Assembly: GCA_038063455.1 (NCBI GenBank)
Contig: JBBTVB010000003.1
Coordinates: 1,714 to 65,713 of the forward strand
Direction of reading: 5' to 3'
From: Patescibacteria group bacterium
GTDB lineage: Bacteria; Patescibacteriota; Patescibacteriia; PEXW01
DNA length: 64,000 nt
The notes beneath the pieces are model-generated. The model did no database searches. It had not been told where the DNA came from and saw nothing but the letters and a program-made list of their open reading frames with translations. Of the stretch, positions 342 through 61,460 are shown piece after piece; the stretch's first letter is position 1, and the number at the start of each line of letters is the position of its first letter. A program made the translations under genes and the position numbers.

Positions 342-350
342 TGCTACAAT
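342..350 (+). promoter_or_regulatory. Extended -10 box TGcTACAAT, 6 nt before ATG 357 (leaderless-type)
   Basis: TG 342-343, TACAAT 345-350, ATG 357. No SD in between. Confidence 0.5.
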
Positions 351-356
351 CAGGCC

Positions 357-1643
357 ATGCGCTTGATTGCCGACCTCCACGTCCACTCGCGTTTTTCCCG
401 CGCCGTGTCCAAAGACATGACCCTGCCGGTAATGCACCGCTGGACCGACTACAAAGGCATTGGCCTGGTGGGTACGGGCGACTTTACCCACCCCACCTGG
501 TTTGCCGAGCTGCGCGACCAGCTGGTCCAGACGGACGGCGGCTTTCTGGAATTGAAAAAATTGTTGCGTGATCCGGCGACGCAAACGAATCCCCTGTTCG
601 TGCCCACCACGGAACTCTCGTGCATCTACAGCGAGCAGGATAAGACGCGGCGCATTCACATCGTGGTGGTCGCACCGAGCCTGCAAGCCGTGGACAAAAT
701 TAACAAGAACCTAGACAAAGAATTTAACCTCCGCAGCGACGGCCGGCCGATTCTTGGCTGCACGGCGCACGACCTGACGGCCCGCCTCCTCTCTATTGAG
801 CCGAATCTCCTGATAATTCCTGCGCACATCTGGACACCGTGGTTTGCCCTGTTCGGCTCCGCCTCCGGCTACGATAGCGCCGACGACTGCTTCCGCGAGC
901 TCATCAAGCACATCCCGGCCATTGAAACCGGCCTTTCCTCTAATCCGACGATGAACTGGCAGTGGAGTCACTTGGACCGCTTTAATATCGTGTCGTTCGG
1001 CGACGCCCACTCGCCGCGCAAGTTCGGGCGCGAGGGCACGGTGTTTGAACTGGAACGGCCAGGATATAAGGAGCTCTTGGCCGCGCTGTGGAACAATCCC
1101 GTCACGGGCACGGGCAAAAGCCCCAACCACATTGTGGAAACGCTGGAATTCTTCCCCGAAGAAGGCAAATACCATTTGGACGGCCACGCCAAGTGCAAGC
1201 AGCGCCTGACCCCGGCGCAGAGCAAGAAGGCCGGCGGCCTGTGCCCGGTATGCAAGAAGCCCCTGACTATTGGCGTGCTTAACCGTGTGGAAAAACTCGC
1301 CGACCGACCCGAGGGTTTTATTGACTCCAAGCGTCCCCCATTCCGCACGCTTATCCCTCTGGAAGAAACCATTGGCGAGGCTATGGATGTGGGGCCGGCC
1401 AGTAAAAAGGTGCAGGCAGTTTATATGACGTTGGTAAAAAAATTTGCCGGCGAGTTTAATGTGCTGCTGGAAACGCCGATCAAAGACATTGCTGCGGTAG
1501 CCGGGGAAACCGTGGCCGATGCCATCCAGCGCGTGCGTAACGGCAAAGTGCACATTGACGCTGGCTATGACGGCATCTTCGGCACCGTCAAAATCTTCTC
1601 CGCCGCCGACCGCAAGAAGCAGGAACAGGCCGCGCTGTTTTAA
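357..1643 (+). CDS. Endonuclease Q-like (EndoQ / TIGR00375-type) PHP-domain nuclease
   Basis: Track ORF 291-1643. MRLIADLHVHSRFSRAVSKDM, GTGDFTHP, GKYHLDGH, Zn-ribbon CPVCKKPLTIGV and C-terminal DAGYDGIFGTVKIF match my memory of archaeal EndoQ. Start moved to M23 (357) because a -10 box lies at 345-350; 291 remains possible. Confidence 0.8.
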   Translation: MRLIADLHVHSRFSRAVSKDMTLPVMHRWTDYKGIGLVGTGDFTHPTWFAELRDQLVQTDGGFLELKKLLRDPATQTNPLFVPTTELSCIYSEQDKTRRIHIVVVAPSLQAVDKINKNLDKEFNLRSDGRPILGCTAHDLTARLLSIEPNLLIIPAHIWTPWFALFGSASGYDSADDCFRELIKHIPAIETGLSSNPTMNWQWSHLDRFNIVSFGDAHSPRKFGREGTVFELERPGYKELLAALWNNPVTGTGKSPNHIVETLEFFPEEGKYHLDGHAKCKQRLTPAQSKKAGGLCPVCKKPLTIGVLNRVEKLADRPEGFIDSKRPPFRTLIPLEETIGEAMDVGPASKKVQAVYMTLVKKFAGEFNVLLETPIKDIAAVAGETVADAIQRVRNGKVHIDAGYDGIFGTVKIFSAADRKKQEQAALF

Positions 1644-1656
1644 GCTTTTTCTCGCC

Positions 1657-1707
1657 GCGTAGGCAGGGATCCCTATCCCTGCCGGGGTTGGGGAACCCCG
1701 GCTACGC
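1657..1707. other. Two abutting GC hairpins closed by an outer stem
   Basis: GGCAGGGAT (1662-1670) / ATCCCTGCC (1675-1683); GGGGTT (1684-1689) / AACCCC (1694-1699); outer GCGTA (1657-1661) / TACGC (1703-1707). No U-run, so not a classic terminator. Confidence 0.5.
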
Positions 1708-1715
1708 ATATGTTA

Positions 1716-1721
1716 TACAAT
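1716..1721 (+). promoter_or_regulatory. -10 box TACAAT, 6 nt before ATG 1728 (leaderless-type)
   Basis: TACAAT 1716-1721, ACTGCC, ATG 1728. The box lies inside the track start at 1710. Confidence 0.45.
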
Positions 1722-1727
1722 ACTGCC

Positions 1728-2279
1728 ATGCTTACCTCGCTCCTCATCATCCTTTACGTCATCATTGGCCTTCTCGGCCTGTTACTCTTGGCCTTGCTCA
1801 TGAGCTTTGTAGTGCTGCTCATTATCCGCGTGCCATTCGTGCGCACGCCCAAACGCGCTACCCAGGCGCTCATTGACGCCAAGCTCATCCAACCAACCGA
1901 CCTGGTCTACGACCTGGGTGCAGGCGACGGCAAATTCTTGCATGACATTGTGAAAGCCACGGGCTGCCGCGGCGAAGGTTTTGAAATCTCCCCTTTTGTC
2001 TGGCTACTCGGCGAGCTGCGCGCGGCCACGTCCAAAAGGTGGAAAATGCACCTACAAAATTTCCTCAACGTGGACTTGAGCGAACCGACGATAATTTTTA
2101 ATTTCCTGGCCCCTGCCGGCATCCCCGGCCTGGCCCAAAAACTCAACACCGAAGTCAAAACTGGCCAAACGGTGATTAGTTACGGCTTCGAGCTCCCTGG
2201 CTGGACACCGATGCAAACCATAGACCCTCAACCCGAGCGGCCTACGGGGTCAAAATTTTACGTGTATAAGAAAGCGTAA
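1728..2279 (+). CDS. Class I SAM-dependent methyltransferase with N-terminal TM helix
   Basis: Track ORF 1710-2279. Hydrophobic N-terminus, SAM motif VYDLGAGDGKFL. Start 1728 preferred over 1710 because of the -10 box. Confidence 0.75.
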   Translation: MLTSLLIILYVIIGLLGLLLLALLMSFVVLLIIRVPFVRTPKRATQALIDAKLIQPTDLVYDLGAGDGKFLHDIVKATGCRGEGFEISPFVWLLGELRAATSKRWKMHLQNFLNVDLSEPTIIFNFLAPAGIPGLAQKLNTEVKTGQTVISYGFELPGWTPMQTIDPQPERPTGSKFYVYKKA

Positions 2280-2311
2280 ACTGGAAAATACAACCGACGG
2301 AACGTCGCCTA

Positions 2312-2340
2312 TTGACGAATAAGGCGATCAATGTTAACAT
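2312..2340 (+). promoter_or_regulatory. Sigma70-type promoter TTGACG-17-TAACAT
   Basis: TTGACG 2312-2317, 17-nt spacer, TAACAT 2335-2340. Lies upstream of the 2404 gene. Confidence 0.5.
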
Positions 2341-2403
2341 CGACTGCAATACATTCGCACATTCCCAAACTAAATTAGAACCCTGAAAGGAGGGTCTGTA
2401 CAA

Positions 2404-3080: not shown

Positions 3081-3170
3081 GGAAGGGTGGCTGAGTGGTC
3101 GAAAGCGCCGCACTCGAAATGCGGTATACCCGTAAGGGTATCGAGGGTTCGAATCCTTCCCCTTCCGCCA
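3081..3170 (+). tRNA. tRNA-Ser (anticodon CGA), CCA encoded
   Basis: Acceptor GGAAGGG / CCCTTCC, anticodon stem CCGCA / TGCGG with loop CTCGAAA (anticodon CGA). Long variable arm TACCC-GTAA-GGGTA, T-loop GGTTCGAATCC, 3' GCCA. Confidence 0.95.
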
Positions 3171-3486: not shown

Positions 3487-4986
3487 TTACGCGGCAATAC
3501 GTAGCCGAGTAAGGGCTTTAACTTCAAGCTGCTGCACACGTTGACGGGTGACACTCATTTTGTCAGCAACTTGCTGCAAGGTACGGTACACACCAGCGTC
3601 GGACATGTCGAGACCGAAACGTAGGATCAGCACCTGCGAGAGACGCGGATCGCTTTGCTGCATCTTCTCGAGCTGCCCACGTCGTCTGGCCGAAAGGATC
3701 TTTCGGAAGGTACCGAGACGACAAATGGGAAACTTCTGGGGAAGAGCAGACACCTGTAGCGCACGGCTCAAGCGGGCGTGATTTTGAAGTTCGCGCTGAC
3801 GCATGGCCTTTTTACGTTCCTGCTTCTCATACGCTTTCACCTGCGAGTGAACTCTCTTGACGTATGCGTACACGCTAGGTGCGGGGTGAAAATCTCTAGC
3901 ACCATAGCGCAGGTACAAGAGCACGGCATTCACCTGAACAGAAACGTAGCTATTGCACCGTTCAGAAAACCCAAACTGCATGCCAACAGCTGACTGCGTT
4001 ATGAACTCCTCACCCTGCAGGCAGAAGTACCGCGCAGTCATCCGGGCACAATGGAGATTGTAGCGGAGCAATTTTTCGAACTGCTTGCGTCGCAAACCTT
4101 GTAACTGCAGGAGAAATGTCCGCTGCCCCGCATAGGCGCGTGAACGGTTCTCTCCTGCTGACCAGCAACTGTCGGGCTGCTCATAGCCGAAGACGATTGC
4201 CACGTCTCGTGCTGTGCACAGCGCACGATAGTGTCCACTGATGATGCGCTCGCTCCCTGGTGGAATCCGAACGATCTTCAGGTTAGGGGCTTTTCGAAGC
4301 ACGCGCTTGAGTGCCCACAAAAAAGGATGGCCGTCAAAGTGCACCATTGTGGTTTCCGAACTGAGCTGTTCAAAACCCCGATGGCCATGCGAATAGCTAA
4401 TACCTACTATCTGCTTGACGAAAATGTCTGGCAGCTCACCAATTCCGGGCACGTAGACGGGCCCTGCAGCTTCTTGATACGCCACCTTCGAATCCGCCAG
4501 TTCCTCGTGGAGCGTGCGACCATCTTCAAAGCGTTCAGCATCCAACGACCTGGGCAGACCGGCCATACGTACTGACTCCACGATCCGCTTAACAGACCGT
4601 TCGGTTACATCAAGGTATTCAGCGACTTCCTGTTCTGTTGGCTTCCTGTGAAGATTGCTAGTGAGCTCTGCTTCCGCCTTTCGAAACGACCGAACCCAGC
4701 GTGCCTGAGACTGAGAAAGAGCCCCCACTCGATCAGCTTCACTCTGAAGGATACCTCGAATGCAGACGCGAAGGTATGCGTCGAGGTTCAAAATGTTCAC
4801 CAACTCCTTTCCCTTGGCGTCGAGAATCTTTGCAATCTCGACCACGCAGGCATTGATGAGATCATCTGGATCGGCCAAACCATTGCATTGCTGCAACCAT
4901 GGTTGGCGCCTGAGGAAGGCCCTAACACACGAACGAATGAGCGGCAACTTTTCTTCCAGAATGCAATTGCGCCTGGCTATTGTCAT
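3487..4986 (-). CDS. Sigma-70 family protein with a ~270-aa insertion between region 3/4.1 and region 4.2
   Basis: Residues 1-167 look like sigma regions 2-3 plus the start of region 4 (PTEQEVAEYLDVTERSVKRIVE; RSLDAERFEDGRTLHEELADS). The region 4.2 HTH (VLILRFGLDMSDAGVYRTLQQVADKMSVTRQRVQQLEVKALTRLR) appears only in the last ~60 aa. SD GGGAGA lies 8 nt before the ATG. Confidence 0.7.
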   Translation of the reverse strand: MTIARRNCILEEKLPLIRSCVRAFLRRQPWLQQCNGLADPDDLINACVVEIAKILDAKGKELVNILNLDAYLRVCIRGILQSEADRVGALSQSQARWVRSFRKAEAELTSNLHRKPTEQEVAEYLDVTERSVKRIVESVRMAGLPRSLDAERFEDGRTLHEELADSKVAYQEAAGPVYVPGIGELPDIFVKQIVGISYSHGHRGFEQLSSETTMVHFDGHPFLWALKRVLRKAPNLKIVRIPPGSERIISGHYRALCTARDVAIVFGYEQPDSCWSAGENRSRAYAGQRTFLLQLQGLRRKQFEKLLRYNLHCARMTARYFCLQGEEFITQSAVGMQFGFSERCNSYVSVQVNAVLLYLRYGARDFHPAPSVYAYVKRVHSQVKAYEKQERKKAMRQRELQNHARLSRALQVSALPQKFPICRLGTFRKILSARRRGQLEKMQQSDPRLSQVLILRFGLDMSDAGVYRTLQQVADKMSVTRQRVQQLEVKALTRLRIAA

Positions 4987-5744: not shown

Positions 5745-5753
5745 TGCTAGTCT
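5745..5753 (+). promoter_or_regulatory. Extended -10 TGcTAGTCT, 6 nt before ATG 5760 (leaderless-type)
   Basis: TG 5745-5746, TAGTCT 5748-5753, ATG 5760. Confidence 0.4.
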
Positions 5754-5759
5754 ACGCCC

Positions 5760-7481
5760 ATGACCCAAGCAACCGCCCTAGCAATTCTCCAAACCGGCGT
5801 GAATGTCTTTCTTACCGGTGAACCGGGCAGCGGCAAAACCCATACGGTAAACAGTTACGTGCGCTGGCTGCGCAGTCACGGCATACCACCCGCGATAACC
5901 GCCTCCACCGGCATTGCGGCCACCCACATTAGCGGGATGACTATCCATTCCTGGTGCGGCATTGGCATAAAAAAATCCCTTTCAACACACGACCTCAACG
6001 CCCTGGCGGCAAACGAACGCGTGGCCCGACGGGTTCGGAACACGAGCGTGCTGATTATTGACGAAGTGTCTATGCTCTCGGCACAGACGCTCGCCATGGC
6101 GGATGCGGTGTGCCGTAAAATCCGGCAGGATACTGCGCCTTTCGGCGGCCTGCAGGTTGTTGTGGTCGGTGACTTTTTCCAATTGCCGCCCGTGGTCCCC
6201 CAGGAAAACCGTGACAGTGCCCAACTCGGCTTTGGCGAAGACGCGGTGGACAGTGCGCCCTTCGCCTTCCGTTCCCCCGCGTGGGACTCCGCCCAGCCGG
6301 TGGTCTGCTATCTCACCGAACAGCACCGCCAGGAAGATGCCGAATTTCTTTCACTTCTTTCGGCTGTACGCTCGGGTACCGCCGATGAAGACACGCACAG
6401 TGCCCTGGCAGCGCGGCGCGCTGATGTAGAACGTACACCGCAAGATCTGCCTCGGCTCTACGCGCACAATGCCGACGTGGACCGCGTGAACGAAACACGC
6501 CTGGCCGCTATTCCTGGCATTGCAAAACACTATACGATGATTTCGCACGGCAAAGAAGGCTTGGTGGCTACGTTACAGCGCGGCTGCCTTTCGCCGGAAA
6601 CCCTCTCACTAAAAGTCGGTGCCCGCGTCATGTTTACCAAGAATAATCCTGACGGCAGTTTTGTAAATGGCACGGTGGGCGAAGTGCAAGGCTTTGGTGA
6701 TGAAGACCAACCGGTAGTACGAACCCTGCGCGGTCGGCGCATAGAAGTGGAGCCAATGGAATGGACGATTACTGACGGCACCCGCACGCTGGCACGCATT
6801 ACGCAGCTCCCCCTCCGGCTTGCCTGGGCAATAACTATTCACAAGAGCCAGGGCATGACCCTGGATGCAGCGGTTATGGACCTTTCGCAGGCCTTTGAGT
6901 ATGGCCAAGGCTACGTTGCGCTCTCGCGAGTGCGCTCGCTCACGGGGCTGCACCTGCTGGGCTGGAACGAGCGCTCACTGGAGGTGCATCCTGAAGTTAT
7001 TGCGCAGGATCAAAATTTTCAACAAAGCTCAATTACGGCGGAAACTACATGTGCCGCTAGGTCAAAAAAAGAACAGGCTGCGCTTGTCCACGCATTTATT
7101 GTAAGCTCCGGTGGCAAACCGGCAGGTGGGGTGGTGATGAGCACCCGGAAAAATACATCCCGCGGCTCAACCTACGATGTGACGCTCGAGCTGGTACACA
7201 GCGGCGCATCTATTCACAAAATTGCCAAAGCCCGTTCGCTCACCGAAGGGACAATTATCTCGCATATGCTCAAGCTCTTTACCGACGGCCGCCTGACCCG
7301 TGCCGAATTAGAACCGCTCATCTCCCCAGCGCTACAAAAGTCGTTACCAAAAATCCAGGCGGTATTTAAAACGCTTGACGTTGAGCACCTCTCACCAATC
7401 TTCGAAAAGTTGGGTGGCGCGTATTCCTATGATGATTTACGCATCGCCCGGGCACTGCTGGAAACAAGCACTCCTGAATAA
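5760..7481 (+). CDS. Pif1/RecD-like ATP-dependent DNA helicase with C-terminal HTH
   Basis: Walker A GEPGSGKTH, Walker B VLIIDEVSML, VVGDFFQLPPV, ITIHKSQG. The C-terminal ~90 aa resembles the helicase-associated HTH (HTH_40-like). Confidence 0.85.
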   Translation: MTQATALAILQTGVNVFLTGEPGSGKTHTVNSYVRWLRSHGIPPAITASTGIAATHISGMTIHSWCGIGIKKSLSTHDLNALAANERVARRVRNTSVLIIDEVSMLSAQTLAMADAVCRKIRQDTAPFGGLQVVVVGDFFQLPPVVPQENRDSAQLGFGEDAVDSAPFAFRSPAWDSAQPVVCYLTEQHRQEDAEFLSLLSAVRSGTADEDTHSALAARRADVERTPQDLPRLYAHNADVDRVNETRLAAIPGIAKHYTMISHGKEGLVATLQRGCLSPETLSLKVGARVMFTKNNPDGSFVNGTVGEVQGFGDEDQPVVRTLRGRRIEVEPMEWTITDGTRTLARITQLPLRLAWAITIHKSQGMTLDAAVMDLSQAFEYGQGYVALSRVRSLTGLHLLGWNERSLEVHPEVIAQDQNFQQSSITAETTCAARSKKEQAALVHAFIVSSGGKPAGGVVMSTRKNTSRGSTYDVTLELVHSGASIHKIAKARSLTEGTIISHMLKLFTDGRLTRAELEPLISPALQKSLPKIQAVFKTLDVEHLSPIFEKLGGAYSYDDLRIARALLETSTPE

Positions 7482-8555: not shown

Positions 8556-8827
8556 CATGCCAACAGCAACTTTCGATTTAAGTTAGCTCTACTATATAGG
8601 GTCGAAGAACACCCGCGGACGCAAGAATAATGAATTATTACTACTTAGAGAAGCGGCGCGACTAATAAGAGTGCTGGGGAACCTTAGCGCACTATAAAAA
8701 TATGCCTAAGAATAACCTTGACTAAATTTGCTTAATAGTCTAGGCTCACTCAAAATGTGCTTACAATAAAAAACTTACGGAGGTGAATATTGAATAGTAA
8801 AAAACAGCAGAAAATCACGATGGCAAC

Positions 8828-9094
8828 TTGGAAGTACCTAGTGACTCAAGCAGGTATACTCGTTACCATAAGCAATGGCGCAAAAGGAACCCGGAACTGT
8901 GGATTGCATGCAAAAAACGCAACTATGCTAAAAATCGATCGGATCCAAGGGCGGTTCGAAACACTGGTGAAGCCTGGAGCCAATCGGAAGACCGCGCAAT
9001 CCTTGCAGCTAACCGTCCAACTGACAGACAGCTTAGTATTCAATTAGGCAGGTCGGTACAAGCAATACAAATACGGCGCAGCCGTATTAGATAA
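8828..9094 (+). CDS. Small basic protein with Myb/SANT-like HTH (start unresolved)
   Basis: Frame with YHKQWRKRNPE..KKRNYAKNR and WSQSEDRAILAANRPTDRQLSIQLGRSVQAIQIRRSRI looks like a DNA-binding protein. It has only a TTG start without SD. The fully overlapping ORF 8790-9047 in another frame owns the SD (see finding). Confidence 0.45.
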   Translation: MEVPSDSSRYTRYHKQWRKRNPELWIACKKRNYAKNRSDPRAVRNTGEAWSQSEDRAILAANRPTDRQLSIQLGRSVQAIQIRRSRIR

Positions 9095-9151: not shown

Positions 9152-9207
9152 GGATGGACTGGGCGTACCGAGTACATTCACGCCTTGCGACATTCGTTTA
9201 ATCGCCG

Positions 9208-9213
9208 TAGGAT
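9208..9213 (+). promoter_or_regulatory. -10 box TAGGAT, 6 nt before ATG 9220 (leaderless-type)
   Basis: TAGGAT 9208-9213, CAGCCT, ATG 9220. Confidence 0.4.
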
Positions 9214-9219
9214 CAGCCT

Positions 9220-9765
9220 ATGGGTAAAATAGGAGCGAACAATGCAACTTTCGGTTCTGGTTGTTTCTGGTGCACAGAAACAATTTTTTTGAGTCTCAAG
9301 GGCGTTACCAGTGTCATGCCGGGATATTCCGGCGGTAGAACCAAAAACCCCACCGACATGCAAGTGTACACGGGGAGAACCGGTCATGTTGAGGTTGCTA
9401 GGATTGAATTCGATCCAAGTATTATCACCTACGAACAACTAATCGAAGTGTTTTTTGGCTCGCATAACCCCACCACCCTCAACCGCCAAGGGAATGACGT
9501 GGGCGAGCAGTATCGATCCGTCATCTTTTTTCACGACGATGAGCAGAAGCAGGTTGCGGAAAAAGTAAAAGCAAAAATAGAGGCGGAAAAAACCTTTGAC
9601 GCCCCAATTGTGACGACCATTGAACCGCTGACGAGTTTCTACCCGGCCGAAGACTACCACCGCAACTACTACGCCAACAACCAAGACCAGCCCTATTGCC
9701 AGGCTGTGATTAGCCCCAAGCTGGCGAAGTTCCGGCAGCATTACAAAGCCCTACTCAAAGAATAA
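9220..9765 (+). CDS. msrA: Peptide-methionine (S)-S-oxide reductase
   Basis: GSGCFWCTE active site, GYSGG, GHVEVARIEFDP, QGNDVGEQYRS. Confidence 0.95.
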   Translation: MGKIGANNATFGSGCFWCTETIFLSLKGVTSVMPGYSGGRTKNPTDMQVYTGRTGHVEVARIEFDPSIITYEQLIEVFFGSHNPTTLNRQGNDVGEQYRSVIFFHDDEQKQVAEKVKAKIEAEKTFDAPIVTTIEPLTSFYPAEDYHRNYYANNQDQPYCQAVISPKLAKFRQHYKALLKE

Positions 9766-15238: not shown

Positions 15239-16096
15239 ATGCGCAAGTCTTTCCTGGTCACGCTACTTATACTCGGCGCATGTGCAGCCTTCCCGCGGCC
15301 CACGCACGCGCTGGCAAATTTGCCGCCGATTATCCCCGACTGCGACCAGACTCGATACATTGTACAAGCCAAAGATGGCGTGGTGAGCAGCCCAAGTGGT
15401 CCAATCCCACCCAGGTTCAAAGAAACTATTTCACCTGACGTTTACGGTGAGGATAAGCCCTATCCAGATTCACAATGGAACCTGGTCGGCTACACCACCA
15501 GTGGCAACTGCACGCTTAACGACTTCCTGCAGCTGTTCATCAACTTGTTTGGCTGGATGCTGTACATCATCTCCATCCTGGCTGTTGTTATGTTCTTTAT
15601 CGGTGGGGGCACGCTGCTTACCTCTGCGGGCAGCGAAGAGCGGGTGCGCACCGGCAAGGCTATTCTCACCAATACCGTTATTGGCATTGCCATTGCCTTG
15701 GGCAGCTGGCTGATTATTAACACGGTGTACATTGCACTGCTGCCCGACGACAATACAAAAAATGGAATTGCATACATCATAAAAAACCAGCAACCGTGGT
15801 TTCGGACATCAGCTTCCAAGACCACGGCCGCGTGTTCTGAGCCACCCCAGTACCCATGTAAGGGCGGGGCTGGTGCCGGGGCCGTTCGGCAGGCGCAGGA
15901 CCTACTGTATACCAATGGCTGCTACGTCAGTGCCGGAACCCGTGAGCAAGAAGTGGACGGGAGTTTTGGTCAGAAGACCTTGGCCGCCTGGAAACTCTGG
16001 CAGCAAATAAATGGGCGTCCCACAACTGAAACTCTAACGGGCTATGAGGAGTTCGCTATAAGTTGCAGCACATTTTTTAACAACCTCACCCCATGA
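15239..16096 (+). CDS. TrbC/VirB2-like pilin domain fused to a C-terminal peptidoglycan-binding domain
   Basis: Signal peptide. Two-TM core LFGWMLYIISILAVVMFFIGGGTLLTSAGSEERVRTGKAIL..IGIAIALGSWLIIN resembles the two downstream paralogues. C-terminus VRQAQDLL..NGCY...VDGSFGQKTLAAWKLWQ resembles PG_binding_1. Confidence 0.6.
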   Translation: MRKSFLVTLLILGACAAFPRPTHALANLPPIIPDCDQTRYIVQAKDGVVSSPSGPIPPRFKETISPDVYGEDKPYPDSQWNLVGYTTSGNCTLNDFLQLFINLFGWMLYIISILAVVMFFIGGGTLLTSAGSEERVRTGKAILTNTVIGIAIALGSWLIINTVYIALLPDDNTKNGIAYIIKNQQPWFRTSASKTTAACSEPPQYPCKGGAGAGAVRQAQDLLYTNGCYVSAGTREQEVDGSFGQKTLAAWKLWQQINGRPTTETLTGYEEFAISCSTFFNNLTP

Positions 16097-16467
16097 AGCC
16101 ACAAAACTCCCCCGTGCACACCCAACATCGCATTGGTCTTGCGCTTACCACCGTCGGTCTCTGGCTTATGCCCCTGGCGGCGTTTGCCGATGGTACCGAT
16201 ACGCAACTCACGAATCCCCTTGGCGTCGATGACCCGAAGCTCTTCATTATCCGCATCCTGCGGTACGCCCTGGGTTTTCTGGGTATTGTTGCCCTGATTA
16301 TGATTATCTACGGAGGTTTCCTCATGCTCACGTCGGGCGGGAATGCGGATACGGTCAAACGTGCAAAATCCACACTTATCTGGGCAGCAGCGGGCATGGC
16401 GGTTATATTGGGTAGCTGGTCGATTATTAGCTTTATCTTCAATACTGCAAACGAAGTGGCTAAATAG
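16093..16467 (+). CDS. TrbC/VirB2-like (T4SS-pilin-like) small membrane protein
   Basis: Signal peptide, NPLG, LGFLGIVALIMIIYGGFLMLTSGGNADTVKRAKS, AAAGMAVILGSWSII. This family is common in CPR genomes (from memory). ATGA overlap with the upstream gene. Confidence 0.65.
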   Translation: MKPQNSPVHTQHRIGLALTTVGLWLMPLAAFADGTDTQLTNPLGVDDPKLFIIRILRYALGFLGIVALIMIIYGGFLMLTSGGNADTVKRAKSTLIWAAAGMAVILGSWSIISFIFNTANEVAK

Positions 16468-16469
16468 CG

Positions 16470-16499
16470 TTGACAGTGAGACGAAAATAGTGGTATAGT
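16470..16499 (+). promoter_or_regulatory. Promoter TTGACA-18-TGgTATAGT
   Basis: TTGACA 16470-16475, TG 16491-16492, TATAGT 16494-16499. About 85-nt leader with SD AAGGGGGTG before ATG 16592. Confidence 0.65.
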
Positions 16500-16591
16500 C
16501 TTGGTGTTCCGCAAGGGACAAAATATATACAATCTTGCGCTCGCTCACCTTCGGTGGGCACTGCACAACATTCGAAAGGGGGTGAAACAAC

Positions 16592-16951
16592 ATGAAATTA
16601 AACCGCAAATTGGTCGCTGGTCTCATTTCGGTAGGTGCGTTGGCACTGCCGTTTGCCGCATCGGCACTTAGTTTTGAGGATCCAAGCCTGACGATAGGCG
16701 TCGGTTCTGCTGACCTCAAAGAGACCGTTCTTAATATCATCACTTTCGTGCTCGGCCTGTTAGGCCTCATCGCTGTCATCATGATCCTCTACGGTGGATT
16801 CATCTGGCTGACAGCCGGTGGCAACGAAGACAAGGTTGGTTCTGCCAAGAAGATCATCTCGGCCGCTATCGTGGGCCTCATCGTGATCCTCCTGTCATGG
16901 GCAATCGTCAACTTCGTGGTCAAGAGCACCGTCAACGTGACGGGTGGCTAG
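16592..16951 (+). CDS. TrbC/VirB2-like (T4SS-pilin-like) small membrane protein, third paralogue
   Basis: Signal peptide, LGLLGLIAVIMILYGGFIWLTAGGNEDKVGSAKK, IVGLIVILLSWAIVNF. Confidence 0.65.
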   Translation: MKLNRKLVAGLISVGALALPFAASALSFEDPSLTIGVGSADLKETVLNIITFVLGLLGLIAVIMILYGGFIWLTAGGNEDKVGSAKKIISAAIVGLIVILLSWAIVNFVVKSTVNVTGG

Positions 16952-33920: not shown

Positions 33921-33928
33921 AGTATACT
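33921..33928. promoter_or_regulatory. Palindromic AGTATACT giving a TATACT -10 box on both strands
   Basis: Plus-strand TATACT 33923-33928 (ATG 33959, 30 nt downstream). Minus-strand TATACT from 33921-33926 (ATG 33912, 8 nt downstream). Confidence 0.45.
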
Positions 33929-39119: not shown

Positions 39120-40184
39120 CTATATGAGGATACGTCCCTGCTTACCTGTCGGGCGCGCTCTTTGAATCATAAACTCAACGTTCTCGTTCATATTAGTCGG
39201 GTCGATTCTAATGTCTGTATGATGGTTTTGCCATACTCGAAAAATCTCATCGGCAAAAGCTTGGCCAATGGTGTCTACTCCCGAAAAGTCCAACTCAACA
39301 ACTTTAAAATTCTCCAAATTCATGGTTACTCGTTTTGCCTCAGATCGAGAAGGTAAGTCGCGGCCAAATTGAAAGAGCTTTACAGTCACGCGCGTCTTGT
39401 CAAACAAATATTCATCCTCTCCGTTCCCCGTAAAAGCATTAAATATACCTCTAAGATCTCGCTGGGATGTGAGATGAATACTAAAACTTACGCGCGTACC
39501 CCTAAGCGATTTTCGATCAGAAATGAATATGTCAGGCAATAAGTTATTCACCGTCAACCGTTTCTCATAACTATCAATAACGAACACATCGCCCATTTTT
39601 GAAGTAAAAAATACTCCTTCGCCTGTGTGCTGTTTTGGGTCCGTAGTCGCTTTACCTTTTAAAATTTCCTGAATGGCAGCAAGTGTCCCCGGTAAACGAA
39701 ATTTGTCACGAACATTATTAAAAATACCGATACCAAAATCACGAACGACAAAAGTTATGGCTGTATCTGTTTTGCGGCAATCAATCTCAATACGCCCCGA
39801 TTGTGAATGATCAATGGCGTTATTAACCATTTCGGTAAAACCATGACGAATAATTTTATGAATATTTTCTTTCGCATCCAAAAAGATGCCCGTTTCTTGC
39901 TCGATTCTTTTAAATACTGTGTCTTCATCAAGATTAGCATTTTTTAGACGAAAAAATATATGACGAATTGCCCGTTTTACGTTACGAACGGCTGTCGTGT
40001 CTGAGGCTAAAACGTACCTAGCTTGATTGGACTTCCCAATGAGAAGTACCGTTCCCTCTTCGCGGAGCTCTTGTAAAAGAAGGTGTGCGTAGTTCCTACT
40101 GACGCTTAAGTCATCACCAATTTGGCGGGTGGTAACCGACCCCTTCTTATGTAGTACAGATAAAATATGGTCTTTTGATTGCAT
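39120..40184 (-). CDS. wHTH - GHKL ATPase (HATPase_c) - STAS-like (DUF4325) protein, low-GC
   Basis: N-terminal winged-helix-like ILSVLHKKGSVTTRQIGDDLSVSRNYAHLLLQEL. N-box MVNNAIDHS, G1 VRDFGIGI, GEGVFF. C-terminal VELDFSGVDTIGQAFADEIFRVW. Visibly AT-richer than both neighbours. Confidence 0.6.
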   Translation of the reverse strand: MQSKDHILSVLHKKGSVTTRQIGDDLSVSRNYAHLLLQELREEGTVLLIGKSNQARYVLASDTTAVRNVKRAIRHIFFRLKNANLDEDTVFKRIEQETGIFLDAKENIHKIIRHGFTEMVNNAIDHSQSGRIEIDCRKTDTAITFVVRDFGIGIFNNVRDKFRLPGTLAAIQEILKGKATTDPKQHTGEGVFFTSKMGDVFVIDSYEKRLTVNNLLPDIFISDRKSLRGTRVSFSIHLTSQRDLRGIFNAFTGNGEDEYLFDKTRVTVKLFQFGRDLPSRSEAKRVTMNLENFKVVELDFSGVDTIGQAFADEIFRVWQNHHTDIRIDPTNMNENVEFMIQRARPTGKQGRILI

Positions 40185-40205
40185 AATAATTTACTTTACA
40201 ACTCT

Positions 40206-40234
40206 ATTATAGAGTAAAGTATAAAAGTTGTCAA
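40206..40234 (-). promoter_or_regulatory. Consensus promoter TTGACA-17-TATAAT with overlapping inverted repeat
   Basis: Minus strand: TTGACA from 40229-40234, TATAAT from 40206-40211. Imperfect inverted repeat TACTTTAC-AA-CTCTAT (40192-40207) / ATAGAG-TAAAGTA (40209-40221) spans the -10 box. Confidence 0.7.
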
Positions 40235-44885: not shown

Positions 44886-44978
44886 GTCTTGGGGCCTTGG
44901 TCGTCACTGTTGACGGGTACGTAGGTTTTGTCGTAGGGTAAGCCAAAATAACAACTCAAGCTTTCCAAGGAGGAAAAA

Positions 44979-45347
44979 GTGTACGTTTGTATTATTATTG
45001 TACAAAAGGAATTGCGCGAGCAACTGCACCAGGTCGTGAAAAAGAATTTTCCAAACAGCACTCACCCTGCGTTTGCTAACTTGACTGCCCTTGAGGATGT
45101 TCGTTTCAAGAAACAGCTGCTGCAAGTAGACCTAGCCATCGTCCACACCGCCGATGCCTCTAGAAATCTTGGTATCTACATAAGTAGAATTCAATCAACG
45201 ACGGGCTGCGGCAAGGTACTGCTCATGCGCCGGCCAAATGAATCAATGGAGCTGCACGAGTCTAGCTGCGGCGTTGTTACTTTGGTCGAGCCACTCAATG
45301 AGAGCTTGCTTGCTGTTAAGGTGGGGTATGTGTTAGCACTTCCGTAA
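44979..45347 (+). CDS. Hypothetical protein (122 aa), possibly a degenerate receiver-like fold
   Basis: SD AAGGAGG (44967-44973) before GTG 44979. AT-richer. No confident family. Confidence 0.5.
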   Translation: MYVCIIIVQKELREQLHQVVKKNFPNSTHPAFANLTALEDVRFKKQLLQVDLAIVHTADASRNLGIYISRIQSTTGCGKVLLMRRPNESMELHESSCGVVTLVEPLNESLLAVKVGYVLALP

Positions 45348-45363
45348 ACACCCAAATATGCTT

Positions 45364-45391
45364 ATCTCGAGACCACTCTCGGGATTTTTTT
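45364..45391 (+). terminator. Rho-independent terminator
   Basis: ATCTCGAGA (45364-45372) / TCTCGGGAT (45377-45385) with one G-U, loop CCAC, T6 at 45386-45391 (overlaps the dnaN stop codon). Confidence 0.75.
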
Positions 45392-46499: not shown

Positions 46500-46500
46500 A

Positions 46501-46727
46501 TTTTATATAGATAGAGTTAGAAGTAGTTAGTAGGGGATGTGGACGGTGGGGAAAAATATTTTTGTGCTAGTAGGTATTGGTGTTTAGATGCTTTTTTGGC
46601 GCGCAACCTGCGGAGAGAATTGTGTGTAGGGTGGTGGTGAAATTTTGGGTTTTTACGTAGTGTGTTTTACGCGCAGTTTGTACACACTTCTTCCTAATAC
46701 TTTCCCACAACATAACCCACACGTTGC
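46501..46727. other. dnaA-dnaN intergenic region: AT-rich tract, TAG-rich run, weak DnaA-box-like sites
   Basis: TTTTATATAG (46501-46510). Six TAG triplets between 46508 and 46533, followed by GGGG and ATGTGGAC (46535-46543). TTTCCCACA (46701-46709) and TAACCCACA (46713-46721) each have 2 mismatches to TTATCCACA. Confidence 0.4.
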
Positions 46728-48098
46728 TCACATGTAGAGCCGCTGCTTGATGAGGGTGAGGTCTTGCTGGAGTTTAAGATCTTCTTTAAGTTGCCTCGTC
46801 ATTTTTTCGATTGCGTGCATAGCGGTGGAGTGGTCCCGGCCACCGAGCTCTTCGCCGATGGTTGGGAACGACGCTTGAATCTCTTCCCGCATGAGGTACA
46901 TAACTATTTGCCGCGGTTTTACCAGCTCTTGGCGGCGGCTCTGGCCCAGCACCTCAGAGACTTTTACGTCGTAGTACTGGCACACCGCCCCAATAATTTG
47001 CTTCGGCGTGACCGCGTGTTGCCGTTTGGTGTGCGTGGCTTGTGTAATGGAAGAGAGAATGTCTTTAATAGAGTCTACGGTGGGCGCGGTGTGGCTTAGG
47101 TTGTGTACCGCGACAATCCGGTTGAGCGCGCCTTCCAGCTCCCGGACGCTATTCTGGATGACGTTGGCAATGTATACCAGCGCGTCGTCACTCATGTGGA
47201 GTTTACGCTCGCTGCATTTGGCCCGCAGGATAGCAATGCGCGTTTCCAGGTCGGGTTCCTGCACGTCGGCGATCATCCCCCACTCAAAACGAGTAAGCAG
47301 CCGAGCTTCCAGCGCCGCAATGGCCTTGGGCGGCCGATCGGACGACAAGATGATTTGCTTATTTTCTTGGTGGAGCGTGTTGAAGGTGTGGAAGAACTCT
47401 TCTTGCGTTCCTTCTTTGCCAGTGAGGAACTGCACGTCGTCCACGAGCAGCACGTCGACCGACCGCCAGCGTTCGCGGAATTTTGCCATTGTCCCTTTGT
47501 AAATAGCCTGTACGAATTCGTTGGTGAATTGCTCGCAACTCACGTACAGGACACGAGCTTTTGGGCTGTGCGCCAGAATGCCGTGGCCAATGGCCTGCAT
47601 CAGGTGGGTCTTGCCCAAGCCCGCACCGCCGTAGATGAAGAGTGGATTGTAGATGTCGCCCGGCTTCTCGGCGCAAGCTTTGGCCGCGGCCTGGGCCAGC
47701 TCGTTGCCCTTACCAACGATAAAGGTGCCAAAGGTGTAGCGCGGGTTGAGGCCGCCCTTGCCCCCCATGGCCTTCAGCAAAGGGGCGGCTTCCTCGACCA
47801 CCTCGGGTGGGGCACTGGTTACCGCATCCACCGAGGCTTTTGGGCTTTCTACTCGGTAGGCAACGCTTGCTATCTCTTTCTCGGTTAGGTGTTGCAGGGC
47901 GTTGAGGATGTGAGAGTGGTATTTGGTCTCCAGCCAGGACTTTACGAAGTCCGTGGGCACGCCAATAACCGCCTGGTCGCCCTCAATGGTGCTGATGAAG
48001 GTGTTTTTGAACCAGGTCGTGAAGTTGGCTTTGCTCAAATGCAGCTCTAATTCGCCTAGTGTGGCTTCCCAGAGCTTATCATTTGGTAATTTCGGCAT
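46728..48098 (-). CDS. dnaA: Chromosomal replication initiator DnaA
   Basis: YTFGTFIVGKGNELA, NPLFIYGGAGLGKTHL, LLVDDVQFL, C-terminal DNA-binding domain HSTAMHAIEK. Confidence 0.97.
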   Translation of the reverse strand: MPKLPNDKLWEATLGELELHLSKANFTTWFKNTFISTIEGDQAVIGVPTDFVKSWLETKYHSHILNALQHLTEKEIASVAYRVESPKASVDAVTSAPPEVVEEAAPLLKAMGGKGGLNPRYTFGTFIVGKGNELAQAAAKACAEKPGDIYNPLFIYGGAGLGKTHLMQAIGHGILAHSPKARVLYVSCEQFTNEFVQAIYKGTMAKFRERWRSVDVLLVDDVQFLTGKEGTQEEFFHTFNTLHQENKQIILSSDRPPKAIAALEARLLTRFEWGMIADVQEPDLETRIAILRAKCSERKLHMSDDALVYIANVIQNSVRELEGALNRIVAVHNLSHTAPTVDSIKDILSSITQATHTKRQHAVTPKQIIGAVCQYYDVKVSEVLGQSRRQELVKPRQIVMYLMREEIQASFPTIGEELGGRDHSTAMHAIEKMTRQLKEDLKLQQDLTLIKQRLYM

Positions 48099-48150: not shown

Positions 48151-48221
48151 TGTGGAAAAATACCTCAAAAGTGTATAGCTGGGGAATAACCTGTGGATAG
48201 TGTATGGATAACTGTGGCGCA
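48151..48221. promoter_or_regulatory. Cluster of DnaA boxes (probable oriC core)
   Basis: TGTGGAAAA (48151-48159), TGTGGATAG (48192-48200) and TATGGATAA (48203-48211) each differ by 1 nt from TGTGGATAA. Weaker TGTGGCGCA at 48213-48221. Lies between divergent dnaA and rpmH. Confidence 0.6.
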
Positions 48222-54131: not shown

Positions 54132-54196
54132 GTTGACATGCGGCGACAGCAATGATATGATGCACGGCCATAAACACACAACAAAAGAGGCGCCCG

Positions 54197-54358
54197 ATGC
54201 AGGATAAGAACCGCAAGGACGCGGGCGCTAAAAAAACGCCCGCAAAAATAGTGCCCGTACAAACCCCCACGGGCTCAAAAGTAAATTTTCACTCCACGGA
54301 TGCGCCCCGCCGTCGTCGGAAGCAACGAAAGACTATGCTGCCCGTCGATGATGACTAA
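54197..54358 (+). CDS. Candidate small basic protein (53 aa), not in the ORF track
   Basis: Hand translation MQDKNRKDAGAKKTPAKIVPVQTPTGSKVNFHSTDAPRRRRKQRKTMLPVDDD*. SD AAGAGG (54185-54190) 6 nt before the ATG, with its own TTGACA-17-TATGAT promoter. The 3' end overlaps the convergent 349-aa gene by 26 nt. Confidence 0.35.
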   Translation: MQDKNRKDAGAKKTPAKIVPVQTPTGSKVNFHSTDAPRRRRKQRKTMLPVDDD

Positions 54359-57996: not shown

Positions 57997-58025
57997 TTGA
58001 CATTTCCAGTGGTTTTTCGTACAAT
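57997..58025 (+). promoter_or_regulatory. Near-consensus promoter TTGACA-17-TACAAT
   Basis: TTGACA 57997-58002, 17-nt spacer, TACAAT 58020-58025. About 80-nt leader to the SD-led gene at 58112. Confidence 0.7.
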
Positions 58026-59366: not shown

Positions 59367-59456
59367 ATGTTTTGGTGATTAGTGATGAATGACGTAGTAG
59401 TGCGGCTGTGTATAGTATACGTCTCTGCTTCCCTATCTCCCACTTTGGTTATTTAT

Positions 59457-59560
59457 TTGTCATCCCGAGCCCCGCACATGCGGGACGAGGGATCTCGCAT
59501 TTTGGAGAGTCATAAATTCGAGATTCCTCCCCCTCGATAAACTCGGGGTCGGAATGACAA
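59457..59560. repeat. 104-nt inverted-repeat / nested-stem element
   Basis: Terminal arms TTGTCAT+CCCGAG (59457-59469) vs CTCGGG...ATGACAA (59542-59560). Inner 11-bp stem GAGGGATCTCG (59487-59497) / CGAGATTCCTC (59519-59529) with one G-U. Small hairpin CCCGC-ACAT-GCGGG (59471-59484). Confidence 0.5.
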
Positions 59561-59564
59561 GAGG

Positions 59565-60590
59565 CTACCTTCCCACTTCCCACACTGGGTTCACATCCAG
59601 TTTCTGCCAAGGCGTCGAATGTCCACGTGCAAGCTCCATTGCGCCAGCCACAGCGATCATGGCGCCGTTGTCTGTGGTGTACTGCAGTGGAGCGACGCTG
59701 AAGTGAAAGCCGGCAGCTTGTGACTCTTTCGCCAGGCGCTCACGCAGTACGCTATTTGCCGCGACGCCACCCCCAAGGAGAATGCACTTGGGTTTTTTTG
59801 TTTGTGCGGCGCGGAGTGTTTTACCCACCAGCACATCCACAATTGCGGTTTGTACCGAGGCGGCCAAGTCGGCTTTGCCTTGCGGGTTCAGGCGCGGGTG
59901 TTTTTGCACAAATGTTGCGACGGCAGTTTTGAGGCCGGCAAAGCTAAACTCAAAGTTTTGTTCTTTCAGCATTGGCCGTGGCAGTGGGATAATTGCCCTG
60001 CCCTTGAGTGCCAGTTGCCCAATAGCTGGGCCGCCAGGGTAGGGCAAGCCCATGAGCTTGGCGGCTTTATCAAAACATTCGCCTGCTGCGTCGTCGCGGG
60101 TTTTGCCGATGAGTTTCACTTTGTCTTTTTCCAGCCACAACAGTTCTGTGTGGCCGCCAGAAACAACCAGCGCCAGCGCGGGGAGTTGCGGTTGCGTATC
60201 GTTGAGCCAGCAACTCGCCAAATGGCCGGCAATATGGTTTACGCCGATGAGCGGCTTGTTGAGCGCAAAGCTCAGCGTGCGTGCGGTTTCGACGCCCACC
60301 AGTAGCGCGGTGCTTAAGCCCGGGCCACTCGTCACGGCAATCGCATCAATGCCCGCCAGCTTGGTGTGGGCTTTTCGGAGCGCGGCTTCCAACGTCGGCA
60401 TGATAGTGGCCGCGTGTTCCCGCGCCGCAACCTCCGGCACCACGCCGCCGGTCTTGCGGTGGGCCAGGACTTGCGATGCTGTGACCATACTGATCACGCG
60501 ATAGCACCCGCGGTGCGTTTCCACCACGGCAATAGACGTGTCGTCGCAGGATGTCTCGATGCCGAGGATGGTGTGGTATGGGGCTGACAT
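59565..60590 (-). CDS. tsaD: tRNA N6-adenosine threonylcarbamoyltransferase TsaD
   Basis: ILGIETSCDDTS, GVVPEVAAREH, VTSGPGLSTALLVG, VNHIAGH, GGGVAAN. Confidence 0.95.
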   Translation of the reverse strand: MSAPYHTILGIETSCDDTSIAVVETHRGCYRVISMVTASQVLAHRKTGGVVPEVAAREHAATIMPTLEAALRKAHTKLAGIDAIAVTSGPGLSTALLVGVETARTLSFALNKPLIGVNHIAGHLASCWLNDTQPQLPALALVVSGGHTELLWLEKDKVKLIGKTRDDAAGECFDKAAKLMGLPYPGGPAIGQLALKGRAIIPLPRPMLKEQNFEFSFAGLKTAVATFVQKHPRLNPQGKADLAASVQTAIVDVLVGKTLRAAQTKKPKCILLGGGVAANSVLRERLAKESQAAGFHFSVAPLQYTTDNGAMIAVAGAMELARGHSTPWQKLDVNPVWEVGR

Positions 60591-60848
60591 GTGGGCTAGT
60601 GAAGAGTAGTATTATGTAGTTGAAAAGGAAAATATACAAACCCCAAAAGGAGTATTGTCGTGAATAAGGTCGGCAGTGATCGTGTAAAAGAAATTGTACG
60701 CAGCGTCATTGTGCACTAACGGAGTGACGGTGAGCTTGAGTATTTGCTATTTCCAAAGAACAAAGCATGTCAGGCGTTACGCGCGAAAGTTTGAATGCGT
60801 AAGAGGCACAGTTTTTCCCGGAGAAGGAAAAAACCGGTAGGAGGAATT

Positions 60849-61169
60849 GTGCGTGAAACTGCAGAAGAATATGGCATCACTGTGATCCGTGTGGGTCGAG
60901 TCATCTACGAGGAAGAACGAGAATGGATTGCGTTTCCGGATGATACGGAATTTTACGATCTATATCGTGCGCGCTACTATGAAGTGGAAACTGAACCAAT
61001 TACGAATGTTCGCTTGAGTTGTGAGCATAGTGGTTCAATCTGGCTGACAATACCAGAAATTGCACGGATTTCTGCTTGCATTCGGCCTAGATGCTTTGCG
61101 GCTCTTCAGCAATTCCACATTAGCGTTAAAAGCGCAGAGATTACAGTTGTACAAGAGTGTTTAGTTTAG
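60849..61169 (+). CDS. Hypothetical protein (106 aa from GTG 60849; 124 aa if ATG 60795)
   Basis: Track ORF 60795-61169. The strong SD TAGGAGGA (60838-60845) precedes the in-frame GTG 60849. No family recognised. Confidence 0.45.
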   Translation: MRETAEEYGITVIRVGRVIYEEEREWIAFPDDTEFYDLYRARYYEVETEPITNVRLSCEHSGSIWLTIPEIARISACIRPRCFAALQQFHISVKSAEITVVQECLV

Positions 61170-61210
61170 CGCGTTTAGTTGCGACCCCTACGGGTGCGAT
61201 TTTTATGTAT

Positions 61211-61250
61211 GTCAAGTTAACTTGACACGCTCATCCCCATCCCTTATGCT
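61211..61250 (+). promoter_or_regulatory. Promoter TTGACA-17-TATGCT with a perfect 16-bp palindrome over the -35
   Basis: GTCAAGTTAACTTGAC (61211-61226). TTGACA 61222-61227, TATGCT 61245-61250, ATG 61257 only 6 nt downstream. Confidence 0.6.
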
Positions 61251-61256
61251 TTGTTT

Positions 61257-61460
61257 ATGCCCAAGCAGCTCATGAACCATGTACGGGACTGTCGGGAAAA
61301 AATTGGTTTGACCCAGCAGGATGTGGCCGGCCGCGTACGCGTCAGTCGTCAAACCATTGTGGCCATTGAGAAAGGCAATTACACCCCCTCAGTTGCACTA
61401 GCGCTTGAGCTTGCCCGCCTGTTACGCTGTTCGGTAGAGCAACTCTTTTTTTGGCAGTGA
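61257..61460 (+). CDS. XRE/Cro-family HTH transcriptional regulator
   Basis: IGLTQQDVAGRVRVSRQTIVAIEKGNYTPSVALALELARLL. The track starts at TTG 61251; ATG 61257 preferred. Confidence 0.85.
   Translation: MPKQLMNHVRDCREKIGLTQQDVAGRVRVSRQTIVAIEKGNYTPSVALALELARLLRCSVEQLFFWQ

Follow-up and report, generated by a model that had tools for sequence, protein, structure and literature searches.

-10-type hexamers next to start codons and sparse Shine-Dalgarno sites in a Kerfeldbacteria-like Patescibacteria genome

How is translation started in a genome where most genes lack a Shine-Dalgarno (SD) sequence? The question is raised by a 64-kb stretch of DNA (the window) from a Kerfeldbacteria-like Patescibacteria metagenome-assembled genome (MAG), in which a hexamer resembling a promoter -10 box recurs a few nucleotides before start codons. 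The window has a GC (guanine plus cytosine) content of 54%, contains ~59 protein genes and one tRNA-Ser gene, and covers the dnaA-dnaN / rpmH-rnpA-yidC region. The best 80 DnaA relatives among species-representative genomes are all Patescibacteria/candidate phyla radiation (CPR), with Kerfeldbacteria, Buchananbacteria, Komeilibacteria, Falkowbacteria and "Parcubacteria" among the groups, and the closest of them share 70-74% DnaA identity. For leaderless initiation there is ample documentation from Actinobacteria, Deinococcus and archaea, and CPR bacteria have pared-down ribosomes. Since, in addition, the anti-SD goes undetected in about half of Parcubacteria (PMC9297842), the way in which CPR translation starts is a practical question.

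We consider it quite likely that the hexamers are -10 elements abutting the start codon, and that they produce leaderless mRNAs read by direct recognition of the 5'-AUG, with reinitiation at downstream genes and few strong SDs. The recurrent hexamers would be sigma-70-type -10 promoter elements from which RNA polymerase would start on the A of the ATG or no more than 1-3 nt away from it, so that the mRNA would have neither a 5' untranslated region (UTR) nor an SD, and ribosomes would load directly on its 5'-terminal AUG. Downstream operon genes would be reached by termination-reinitiation, their starts overlapping the prior stop (ATGA) or lying 2-3 nt after it. The leaderless route would serve ~15 of the 59 genes, ~37% of ~38 transcription units; other operon-first genes would have leaders of 15-85 nt, mostly SD-free, and a strong SD would stand only before seven genes, mostly small, GC-poor and lineage-restricted. 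Given the motif with its spacing and enrichment, its conservation in relatives, its place at the head of operons and the lack of SDs, all of which were observed, the mRNA 5' end probably lies at the start codon in about a third of operons.

Position and promoter character of the hexamer

Two forms of the motif were used, a loose one (TANNNT) and a strict one (TA[CT]A[AC]T). Starts were set by a fixed rule, the first ATG of each greedily called open reading frame (ORF; n = 55), independently of the starts proposed in an earlier reading of the same sequence (the original prediction), and the upstream regions of these ORFs were shuffled 2000 times as a control. In 14 of the 55 ORFs a TANNNT ended 6-9 nt upstream of this ATG, against 3.77 ± 1.88 in the shuffles, none of which reached 14 (0/2000); other 4-nt offsets in the same 55 real upstream regions gave 4-6 matches. 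The strict motif stood at 6-9 nt in 6/55 ORFs, compared with 0.30 in the shuffles. The original prediction had listed 13 TANNNT-spacer-ATG strings as -10 boxes of leaderless genes. All 13 are present in the sequence exactly as given, the excess over shuffled upstream regions that such boxes should produce was found for the 55 ORFs of the window, and this reading of the recurrent TANNNT is the best available here, the mRNAs being predicted to be leaderless or near-leaderless.

The same preference was seen when the motif, rather than the start codon, was taken as the point of departure. The window holds 82 strict sites on both strands. At nine of them an ATG that opens an ORF of 100 aa or more stands 6-9 nt further on, where other spacings predict 1.9 (Poisson p = 1.8e-4), and any ATG follows at this distance in 12/82 (~1.3 per spacing elsewhere). 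The distribution of hexamer-ATG spacings has its maximum at 6-7 nt, so the A of the ATG falls at the canonical +1 distance from a -10 box. When every ATG followed by a long ORF was counted, the loose motif showed no significant excess (22 vs 16.6); internal methionines swamp this count, and the fixed-start and strict-motif tests were used instead. Among 42 annotated starts of E. coli K-12, which served as a control, the loose motif was found at 2/42 and the strict motif at 0/42. The ATG is the 5'-most possible start of its ORF at 7 of the 13 originally listed sites and at 8 of the 15 in the full list described below, so that no choice of start was made there.

The arrangement recurs in 8.5 kb of held-out sequence of the same contig, outside the window (L085 12161-20672): a box lies exactly 6 nt from the ATG in 3 of ~6 operon-first genes (TATACT twice, TGaTAGGCT once), and two small ORFs have SDs. 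This is a successful prediction on unseen sequence of the same genome.

The 15 sites of the full list, aligned on the hexamer, have invariant T1, A2 and T6 and an A at position 4 in 10/15, and the consensus of the recurrent hexamers is TA[T/C]A[C/A]T. The spacing is 7 nt in three sites, 8 nt in three, 9 nt in two and 6 nt in the others; in this geometry the box is followed 7-8 nt later by the A of the ATG, with a pyrimidine at -1 in 14/15 sites versus 44% of all ATGs. Operon-first genes account for 14 of the 15, and the exception comes after a 20-nt gap. SD pairing was scored as duplex free energy (dG) against a CCUCC tail, for which random sequence has a median of -3.2 and a 1% tail of -11.9. 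None of the 15 sites has an SD, all dG being above -7.4, just as had been claimed for the listed hexamer-led starts.

In five sites TGn directly precedes the hexamer. TGcTACAAT-6-ATG357 (342-359, plus strand) leads an endonuclease Q family gene of 428 aa, with position 2 of the TIGR00375 profile at residue 5; TGcTAGTCT-6-ATG5760 (5745-5762, plus), a loose hexamer, leads a PIF1/RecD-type helicase that has no alternative start upstream and matches AAA_30 from profile position 6 at residue 3; and TGcTATCAT-6-ATG40311 (40296-40313, plus) leads a hypothetical protein of 620 aa. The other two lie on the minus strand: TGcTACACT-7-ATG50632 (50630-50648) before tsaE, which was absent from the original list (TsaE profile position 2 at residue 6), and TGcTAGGAT-9-ATG57970 (57968-57988) before valS, again with no alternative start upstream. 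Orthologues of the 620-aa protein and of valS align from residue 1. A perfect TTGACA at 17 nt is found in one site, TTGACA-17-TATGCT-6-ATG61257 (61222-61259, plus), which leads an XRE-family regulator (HTH_3 profile position 1 at residue 9).

Three further sites have 6-nt spacing: TACAAT-6-ATG1728 (1713-1730, plus; a methyltransferase-like protein of 183 aa), TAGGAT-6-ATG9220 (9205-9222, plus; msrA) and TATACT-6-ATG27308 (27306-27323, minus; a hypothetical protein of 534 aa, whose orthologue alignments start at residue 2). The msrA hexamer is the weakest of the set, with TTGCGA 17 nt upstream, and PMSR profile position 2 falls at residue 9; neither msrA nor the 534-aa gene has an alternative start upstream. 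TACACT-7-ATG17025 (17009-17027, plus) leads a DUF2079 membrane protein, likewise with no alternative start upstream, and TACACT-7-ATG50761 (50745-50763, plus) a DHH-family protein to which more than 20 orthologues align from residue 1. At 8 nt stand TATACT-8-ATG33912 (33910-33929, minus; a GH100-type glycoside hydrolase), TATACT-8-ATG52067 (52050-52069, plus; a pilB-type ATPase) and an uncertain added candidate, TACAAT-8-GTG24910 (24908-24927, minus), before the first GT2 gene of a glycosylation operon on that strand, for which ATG24895 is an alternative start. TATACT-9-ATG11556 (11538-11558, plus) precedes a Zn alcohol dehydrogenase 20 nt past the msrB stop and is the sole site not clearly operon-first; a leader of 1-3 nt is possible for its transcript.

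The leaderless GH100 gene (33912, minus) and a GT4 operon (33959, plus) are divergent and only 46 nt apart. The latter has a predicted leader of ~23 nt, with its -10 box 30 nt before the ATG, and the TATACT boxes of the two overlap at 33921-33928 in the palindrome AGTATACT, so that RNA polymerase could probably not occupy both orientations at once.

The same hexamers (TATAAT, TATACT, TACACT), together with good -35 boxes at 16-18 nt, sit 15-85 nt 5' of leadered genes. Examples are the promoters of rpmH (TTGACG-17-TACACT), YebC (TTGACC-17-TATAAT), 12959 (ATGACA-17-TATAAT) and 40184 (TTGACA-17-TATAAT), and the TATTAT box of dnaA. This identifies the motif as the promoter of the organism and not as an RNA signal held at a fixed distance from the start codon. 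A two-hexamer sigma-70 scan located the strong full promoters of leadered genes. It recovered only 2/15 leaderless promoters (11556 and 61257), with totals not above shuffles, because the leaderless promoters lack a -35 match.

Conservation was assessed in 1.4 Mb of loci from relatives (numbered with the prefix L). The start of pilB could be read in 17 relatives, and 14 of these have (T)GnTATACT or TATAAT at 6-13 nt from it; the 620-aa gene has an identical TGcTATCAT-6-ATG in L002; valS has TACAAT 6-11 nt from its ATG in four relatives (L016, L009, L017, L007), and tsaE has TGn -10 boxes at 5-10 nt in three (L002, L003, L006). Across the relatives' loci with GC of at least 0.47, the strict motif was found 15 times against 4.1 expected (p = 3e-5), with the same positional peak, and low-GC loci showed a strict-motif spike at spacing 6. 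The clade-wide profile of the loose motif was uninformative in AT-rich relatives, where its background is too high.

Further leaderless-type starts were noticed outside dnaA neighbourhoods, on an unrelated low-GC (0.39) metagenomic contig (L084) that encodes a homologue of the SD-led protein at 2404 described below. An IS200-type Y1 transposase there has TGcTAGAAT-6-ATG, and the adjoining metallo-beta-lactamase-fold gene has TATAAT-7-ATG (L084 3247 and 4602).

Strong Shine-Dalgarno sites and genes with neither signal

Eight genes had been proposed to carry canonical SDs, at coordinates that are those of the start codons rather than of the SDs themselves. An SD was taken to be a purine-rich run that can pair with the 16S 3' tail and lies 4-12 nt before the start codon; on this definition pairing with the CCUCC tail was strong at seven of the eight (dG -11.2 to -20.8). 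The eighth, YebC (28982), has GGGAGGA 15 nt from its ATG with a dG of only -5.6 and is to be dropped from the SD list. No rRNA was found in the 64-kb window. The 16S 3' end of a relative with 55% DnaA identity (L043), the only one among the fetched loci, reads GGATCACCTCCTTTCT and keeps CCUCC, so the anti-SD is probably retained in the organism of the window.

A GC of 0.45-0.48 was recorded for four of the seven. The SD AAAGGAGGG, 9 nt before ATG2404 (2382-2406, plus; 175 aa, GC 0.48, dG -16.2), leads a member of a small family with ~25 metagenomic homologues on uncultured-organism contigs of similar type; since this SD is conserved in a sister MAG (L082), the gene is no recent arrival. AAGGAGG lies 5 nt before GTG44979 (44957-44981, plus; dG -11.2), the start of a 122-aa orphan (GC 0.48) with no real homologue among 1.84 billion representatives, which sits within a 504-nt insertion (44886-45389); the same interval, between convergent PBP1 and dnaN, measures 24-83 nt in the close relatives L002-L005. 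Another orphan, of 205 aa (GC 0.46), has AAAGGAGGGTGAT 4 nt before ATG58112 (58090-58114, plus; dG -19.3) and a TTGACA-17-TACAAT promoter at 57997-58025; a search of 5.8 billion protein clusters placed no other protein in its family. TAGGAGGA precedes GTG60849 (60827-60851, plus; 106 aa, GC 0.45, dG -11.5).

On the minus strand, AAAGGGGGT precedes ATG54010 (54008-54032; 76 aa, dG -12.4); this start and GTG60849 are as in the public gene set. The site GGAGGTGA before TTG8790 (8768-8792, plus; dG -15.4) leads an 85-aa ORF that is an unverified gene, with its own TACAAT box 20 nt upstream. In the small-ORF region around it (8762-9094, plus), an 88-aa frame from 8828 overlaps the TTG8790 ORF, and neither appears in the protein numbering of the NCBI Prokaryotic Genome Annotation Pipeline (PGAP). 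The seventh site, AAAGGGGGTGA before ATG16592 (16570-16594, plus; dG -20.8), belongs to a T4SS_pilin-domain protein with GC 0.53 and a native-like composition, homologues in four more distant CPR relatives, and a TTGACA-18-TATAGT promoter ~85 nt upstream. Three successive genes with the T4SS_pilin domain (PF18895) occupy 15239-16951 (plus). The first also encodes a peptidoglycan-binding domain, and no SD-like site of the window is stronger than that of the third, which has a promoter to itself.

As a group, the SD-led genes are GC-poor (mean 0.485) relative to leaderless genes (0.554, Mann-Whitney p = 0.0009) and to all others (0.544, p = 0.003), and leaderless and other genes do not differ (p = 0.26). 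A Pfam domain is absent in 6/7. Several atypical genes have near-perfect TTGACA/TAnAAT promoters, and some SD-led ones have long leaders. A count of SD-like 6-mers followed by ORFs did not discriminate coding from non-coding sequence (p = 0.54), against a badly chosen null.

These genes had prompted a two-class model, in which native core genes are leaderless and SD-led genes are horizontally acquired. The part that placed SDs in AT-richer islets plus a few other genes stands as far as the mean GC goes, with 16592 of typical GC. For acquisition speak the low GC of the SD-led genes, the two orphans and the small families, the insertion of 44979 relative to four close relatives, and the full-consensus TTGACA/TAnAAT promoters with long leaders at some of them. 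The SD-led genes could be linked to no donor lineage, phage or plasmid, so acquisition is something that we infer; in a PHROG scan of their proteins no family was significant, and a frame at 8828 gave E = 0.005. The pilin-domain gene 16592 looks native, and the SD of the 2404 family is conserved in the sister MAG. The identification of leaderless with core genes did not hold: valS and tsaE are mixed in that set with accessory genes (XRE regulator, PIF1-type helicase, alcohol dehydrogenase), and its GC is like that of other genes. Thirty-seven of the 59 genes (63%) belong to neither class. We regard the two-class model as a doubtful description of this genome.

Among the 37 genes that lack both a -10 box at the ATG and an SD are the most conserved genes (dnaA, dnaN, rpmH, yidC, tsaD, PBP1, YebC). 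An SD was found at 0/19 operon-internal genes and, with dG <= -11, at 7 of ~24 leadered first genes; the remaining genes are no stronger than the random median of -3.2. Leadered first genes, among them dnaA, dnaN, rpmH, PGI and tsaD, have leaders rich in A or pyrimidines and free of SDs, and non-leaderless starts are A-rich at -3 to -5. SD use is likewise low in the relatives, at 8.6% of genes (dG <= -10), in line with the published figure of only 48% of Parcubacteria in which the anti-SD motif could be detected (PMC9297842). Among the relatives, leaderless frequency showed no inverse relation to SD use.

Within operons, 15 of ~21 internal junctions fall between -8 and +3 nt (ATGA overlaps, or TAA plus 2-3 nt and then ATG), and such tight, SD-free junctions point to reinitiation coupling. 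Termination-reinitiation coupling with 70S re-use in tightly packed operons has reportedly been described by Huber et al. 2019 and Yamamoto et al. 2016; the stop-start distances here, SD-free at -4 (ATGA) or +2/+3 nt, are like those systems, with coupling suggested by the spacing and the lack of SD.

More speculatively, the Kerfeldbacteria-like CPR lineage may have largely dropped SD-dependent initiation for its native genes. Ribosomes might then load on 5'-terminal AUGs or on unstructured A-rich leaders and reinitiate at -4 to +3 nt, while the anti-SD, still retained, would serve hardly any but young GC-poor genes, orphan or incoming, each arriving with a full-consensus promoter and a strong SD of its own. 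On this view the age or origin of a gene could be read from its SD strength in these genomes, and initiation without an SD would be what the reduced CPR ribosome is tuned to.

Alternative readings of the hexamer

If SDs are so rare in the clade (8.6% of the relatives' genes), some other initiation signal must exist, and the hexamer could itself be that signal at the RNA level, a non-SD, U/A-rich translation element within a longer 5' UTR, as in the group B genomes discussed below, with promoters farther upstream. The 48% figure for anti-SD detection in Parcubacteria and the A-richness of non-leaderless starts at -3 to -5 agree with this. An RNA signal should, however, also precede operon-internal genes, and only 1/19 carries the hexamer, the one after a 20-nt gap. 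The same hexamers stand 15-85 nt from other genes, preceded at 16-18 nt by good -35 boxes; TGn extensions are contacts of RNA polymerase with DNA; and the spacing drifts between 6 and 13 nt among orthologues. An RNA-level signal is thus improbable.

The boxes could also be real promoters of leadered mRNAs translated from a start downstream of the adjacent ATG. Other candidate starts exist in 5/15 ORFs, and some N-termini, such as that of pilB, are poorly conserved. Yet the adjacent ATG is itself over-represented 6-9 nt after the strict motif (12/82, as above), the proposed proteins are matched by family profiles and orthologues from residues 1-9 onward, and these genes have no downstream SD, which leaves a downstream start very improbable. 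Chance combined with free choice among alternative starts, which could draw on the looseness of TANNNT (expected in ~5% of 4-nt spacing windows) and on the non-significant count over all long-ORF ATGs, is already contradicted by the data and has next to no likelihood: no shuffle reached the fixed-start count, about half of the ATGs (7/13 and 8/15) allowed no earlier start, the strict motif gave p = 1.8e-4, the E. coli control was flat, and the pattern recurs in held-out contig sequence and in orthologues.

We therefore return to -10 elements abutting the start codon, against which several points weigh. The transcription start positions are deduced from sequence geometry, and the 8-9 nt spacings (5/15 sites) may leave a leader of 1-3 nt. 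The hexamers at 5760, 9220 and 57970 (TAGTCT, and TAGGAT twice) are weak matches, and their TAG is in-frame and doubles as the ORF boundary, so that loose-motif counts at spacings 6 and 9 are slightly inflated. The box of the DHH gene is not conserved in the four closest relatives. In the relatives' genes as a whole the strict motif lies at 6-9 nt in 5.4%, versus 2.7% at a control offset and 16% in the window, so the density of the window is not general. Finally, the agreement of the proposed starts with public annotation is partly circular.

Start annotation, known systems and neighbouring features

That agreement concerns the PGAP annotation (MEK75701xx-MEK75702xx, locus tags AAB515_), whose protein lengths match the proposed starts for 8/8 proteins tested; it is not fully independent because GeneMarkS-2 models the same signal (PMC6028130). 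As had been claimed, the longest ORF starts upstream of or in the box at 357 (from ATG 291), 1728 (from ATG 1710), 33912, 50761 and 52067. A second public gene set has 450 aa (from ATG291), 189 aa and 432 aa where PGAP has 428 aa for endonuclease Q (MEK7570194.1), 183 aa for the protein at 1728 (MEK7570195.1) and 424 aa for GH100. The expectation that start calls would change throughout was right in that the revised starts fit profile and orthologue N-termini, but they are already in the PGAP record and differ only in the other gene-call set. Callers that take the longest ORF or are trained on SDs extend several proteins upstream through their own promoter, and both versions are in public protein sets.

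The arrangement is of a known kind, that of group C in the GeneMarkS-2 classification, in which 25-50% of operons have a Pribnow box 6-8 nt ahead of the start codon, as in Mycobacterium tuberculosis and Streptomyces, and which is typical of Actinobacteria and Deinococcus-Thermus (PMC6028130). Shared with group C are the -10 box 6-8 nt from the start codon of operon-first genes, the weak -35 element and the mis-calling of starts by longest-ORF rules. The share of operons concerned may be similar too, at ~37% of ~38 units in the window and 3 of ~6 in the further 8.5 kb, with a weaker signal in relatives. Group C genomes are described as using SDs for their remaining genes, internal ones included, whereas here SDs were found at 0/19 internal and 7 of ~24 leadered first genes, so that the known arrangement appears in a new lineage with unusually low SD use; Patescibacteria are not among the phyla named in that paper (PMC6028130).

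In Deinococcus deserti the transcription start site lies at or very near the AUG/GUG in 47-60% of mRNAs, as shown by differential RNA sequencing (dRNA-seq) and proteogenomics (PMC4007540). The window resembles it in having a TAnnnT -10 motif just upstream and in the re-annotation of starts that follows; it differs in its lower fraction and in the kind of evidence, which here is sequence. In being largely SD-free, here and in relatives, with A-rich upstream regions, the genome is like group B (Bacteroidetes) and the anti-SD-poor Parcubacteria (PMC9297842); unlike group B, whose genomes are not described as leaderless-rich, it keeps a few very strong SD sites. No paper tying leaderless mRNAs to Patescibacteria/CPR was found in the literature searched, although a transcription start site data set exists for Nanosynbacter lyticus, outside that comparison, and the leaderless arrangement seems not to have been described before in a CPR lineage. 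The window offers a testable picture, in which about one third of operons would be leaderless, genes within operons would be tightly coupled, and SDs would be rare and confined mostly to atypical genes.

Some other features of the window were noted. The dnaA-rpmH spacer (48151-48211) contains three DnaA-box-like 9-mers with one mismatch to TTATCCACA, no more than 60 nt upstream of dnaA, and the dnaA-dnaN spacer (~46500-46560) has a TCCACA element upstream of dnaN that recurs in relatives; together these elements probably mark the replication origin. Within dnaA, on the opposite strand, 47553-47633 (plus) matches Rfam AsdA, an antisense RNA of dnaA mRNA (57.7 bits, gathering score 52), which most likely reflects conservation of dnaA coding sequence and not a real small RNA in a CPR bacterium.

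A HATPase_c/DUF4325 (STAS-like) gene at 39120-40234 (minus) has a GC of 0.41, far under its neighbours, and a perfect TTGACA-17-TATAAT promoter. The spacer from GalT to the 620-aa gene is variable, at 1.2 kb here, 2.5 kb in L002 and 0.4 kb in L005. Another variable spacer, between pilB and the valS operon, contains at 54133-54358 (plus) a 53-aa ORF, called in the public gene set, and 35 nt upstream of it a near-consensus TTGACA-17-TATGAT promoter with TG. A sigma-70-family protein of 499 aa is encoded at 3487-4986 (minus). Its regions 3 (residues 102-172) and 4 (446-496) are separated by ~270 aa, no region 2 was seen at E <= 0.001, and none of the NCBIfam cutoffs is reached. The gene occupies a GC-poor stretch and adjoins tRNA-Ser(CGA) at 3081-3170.

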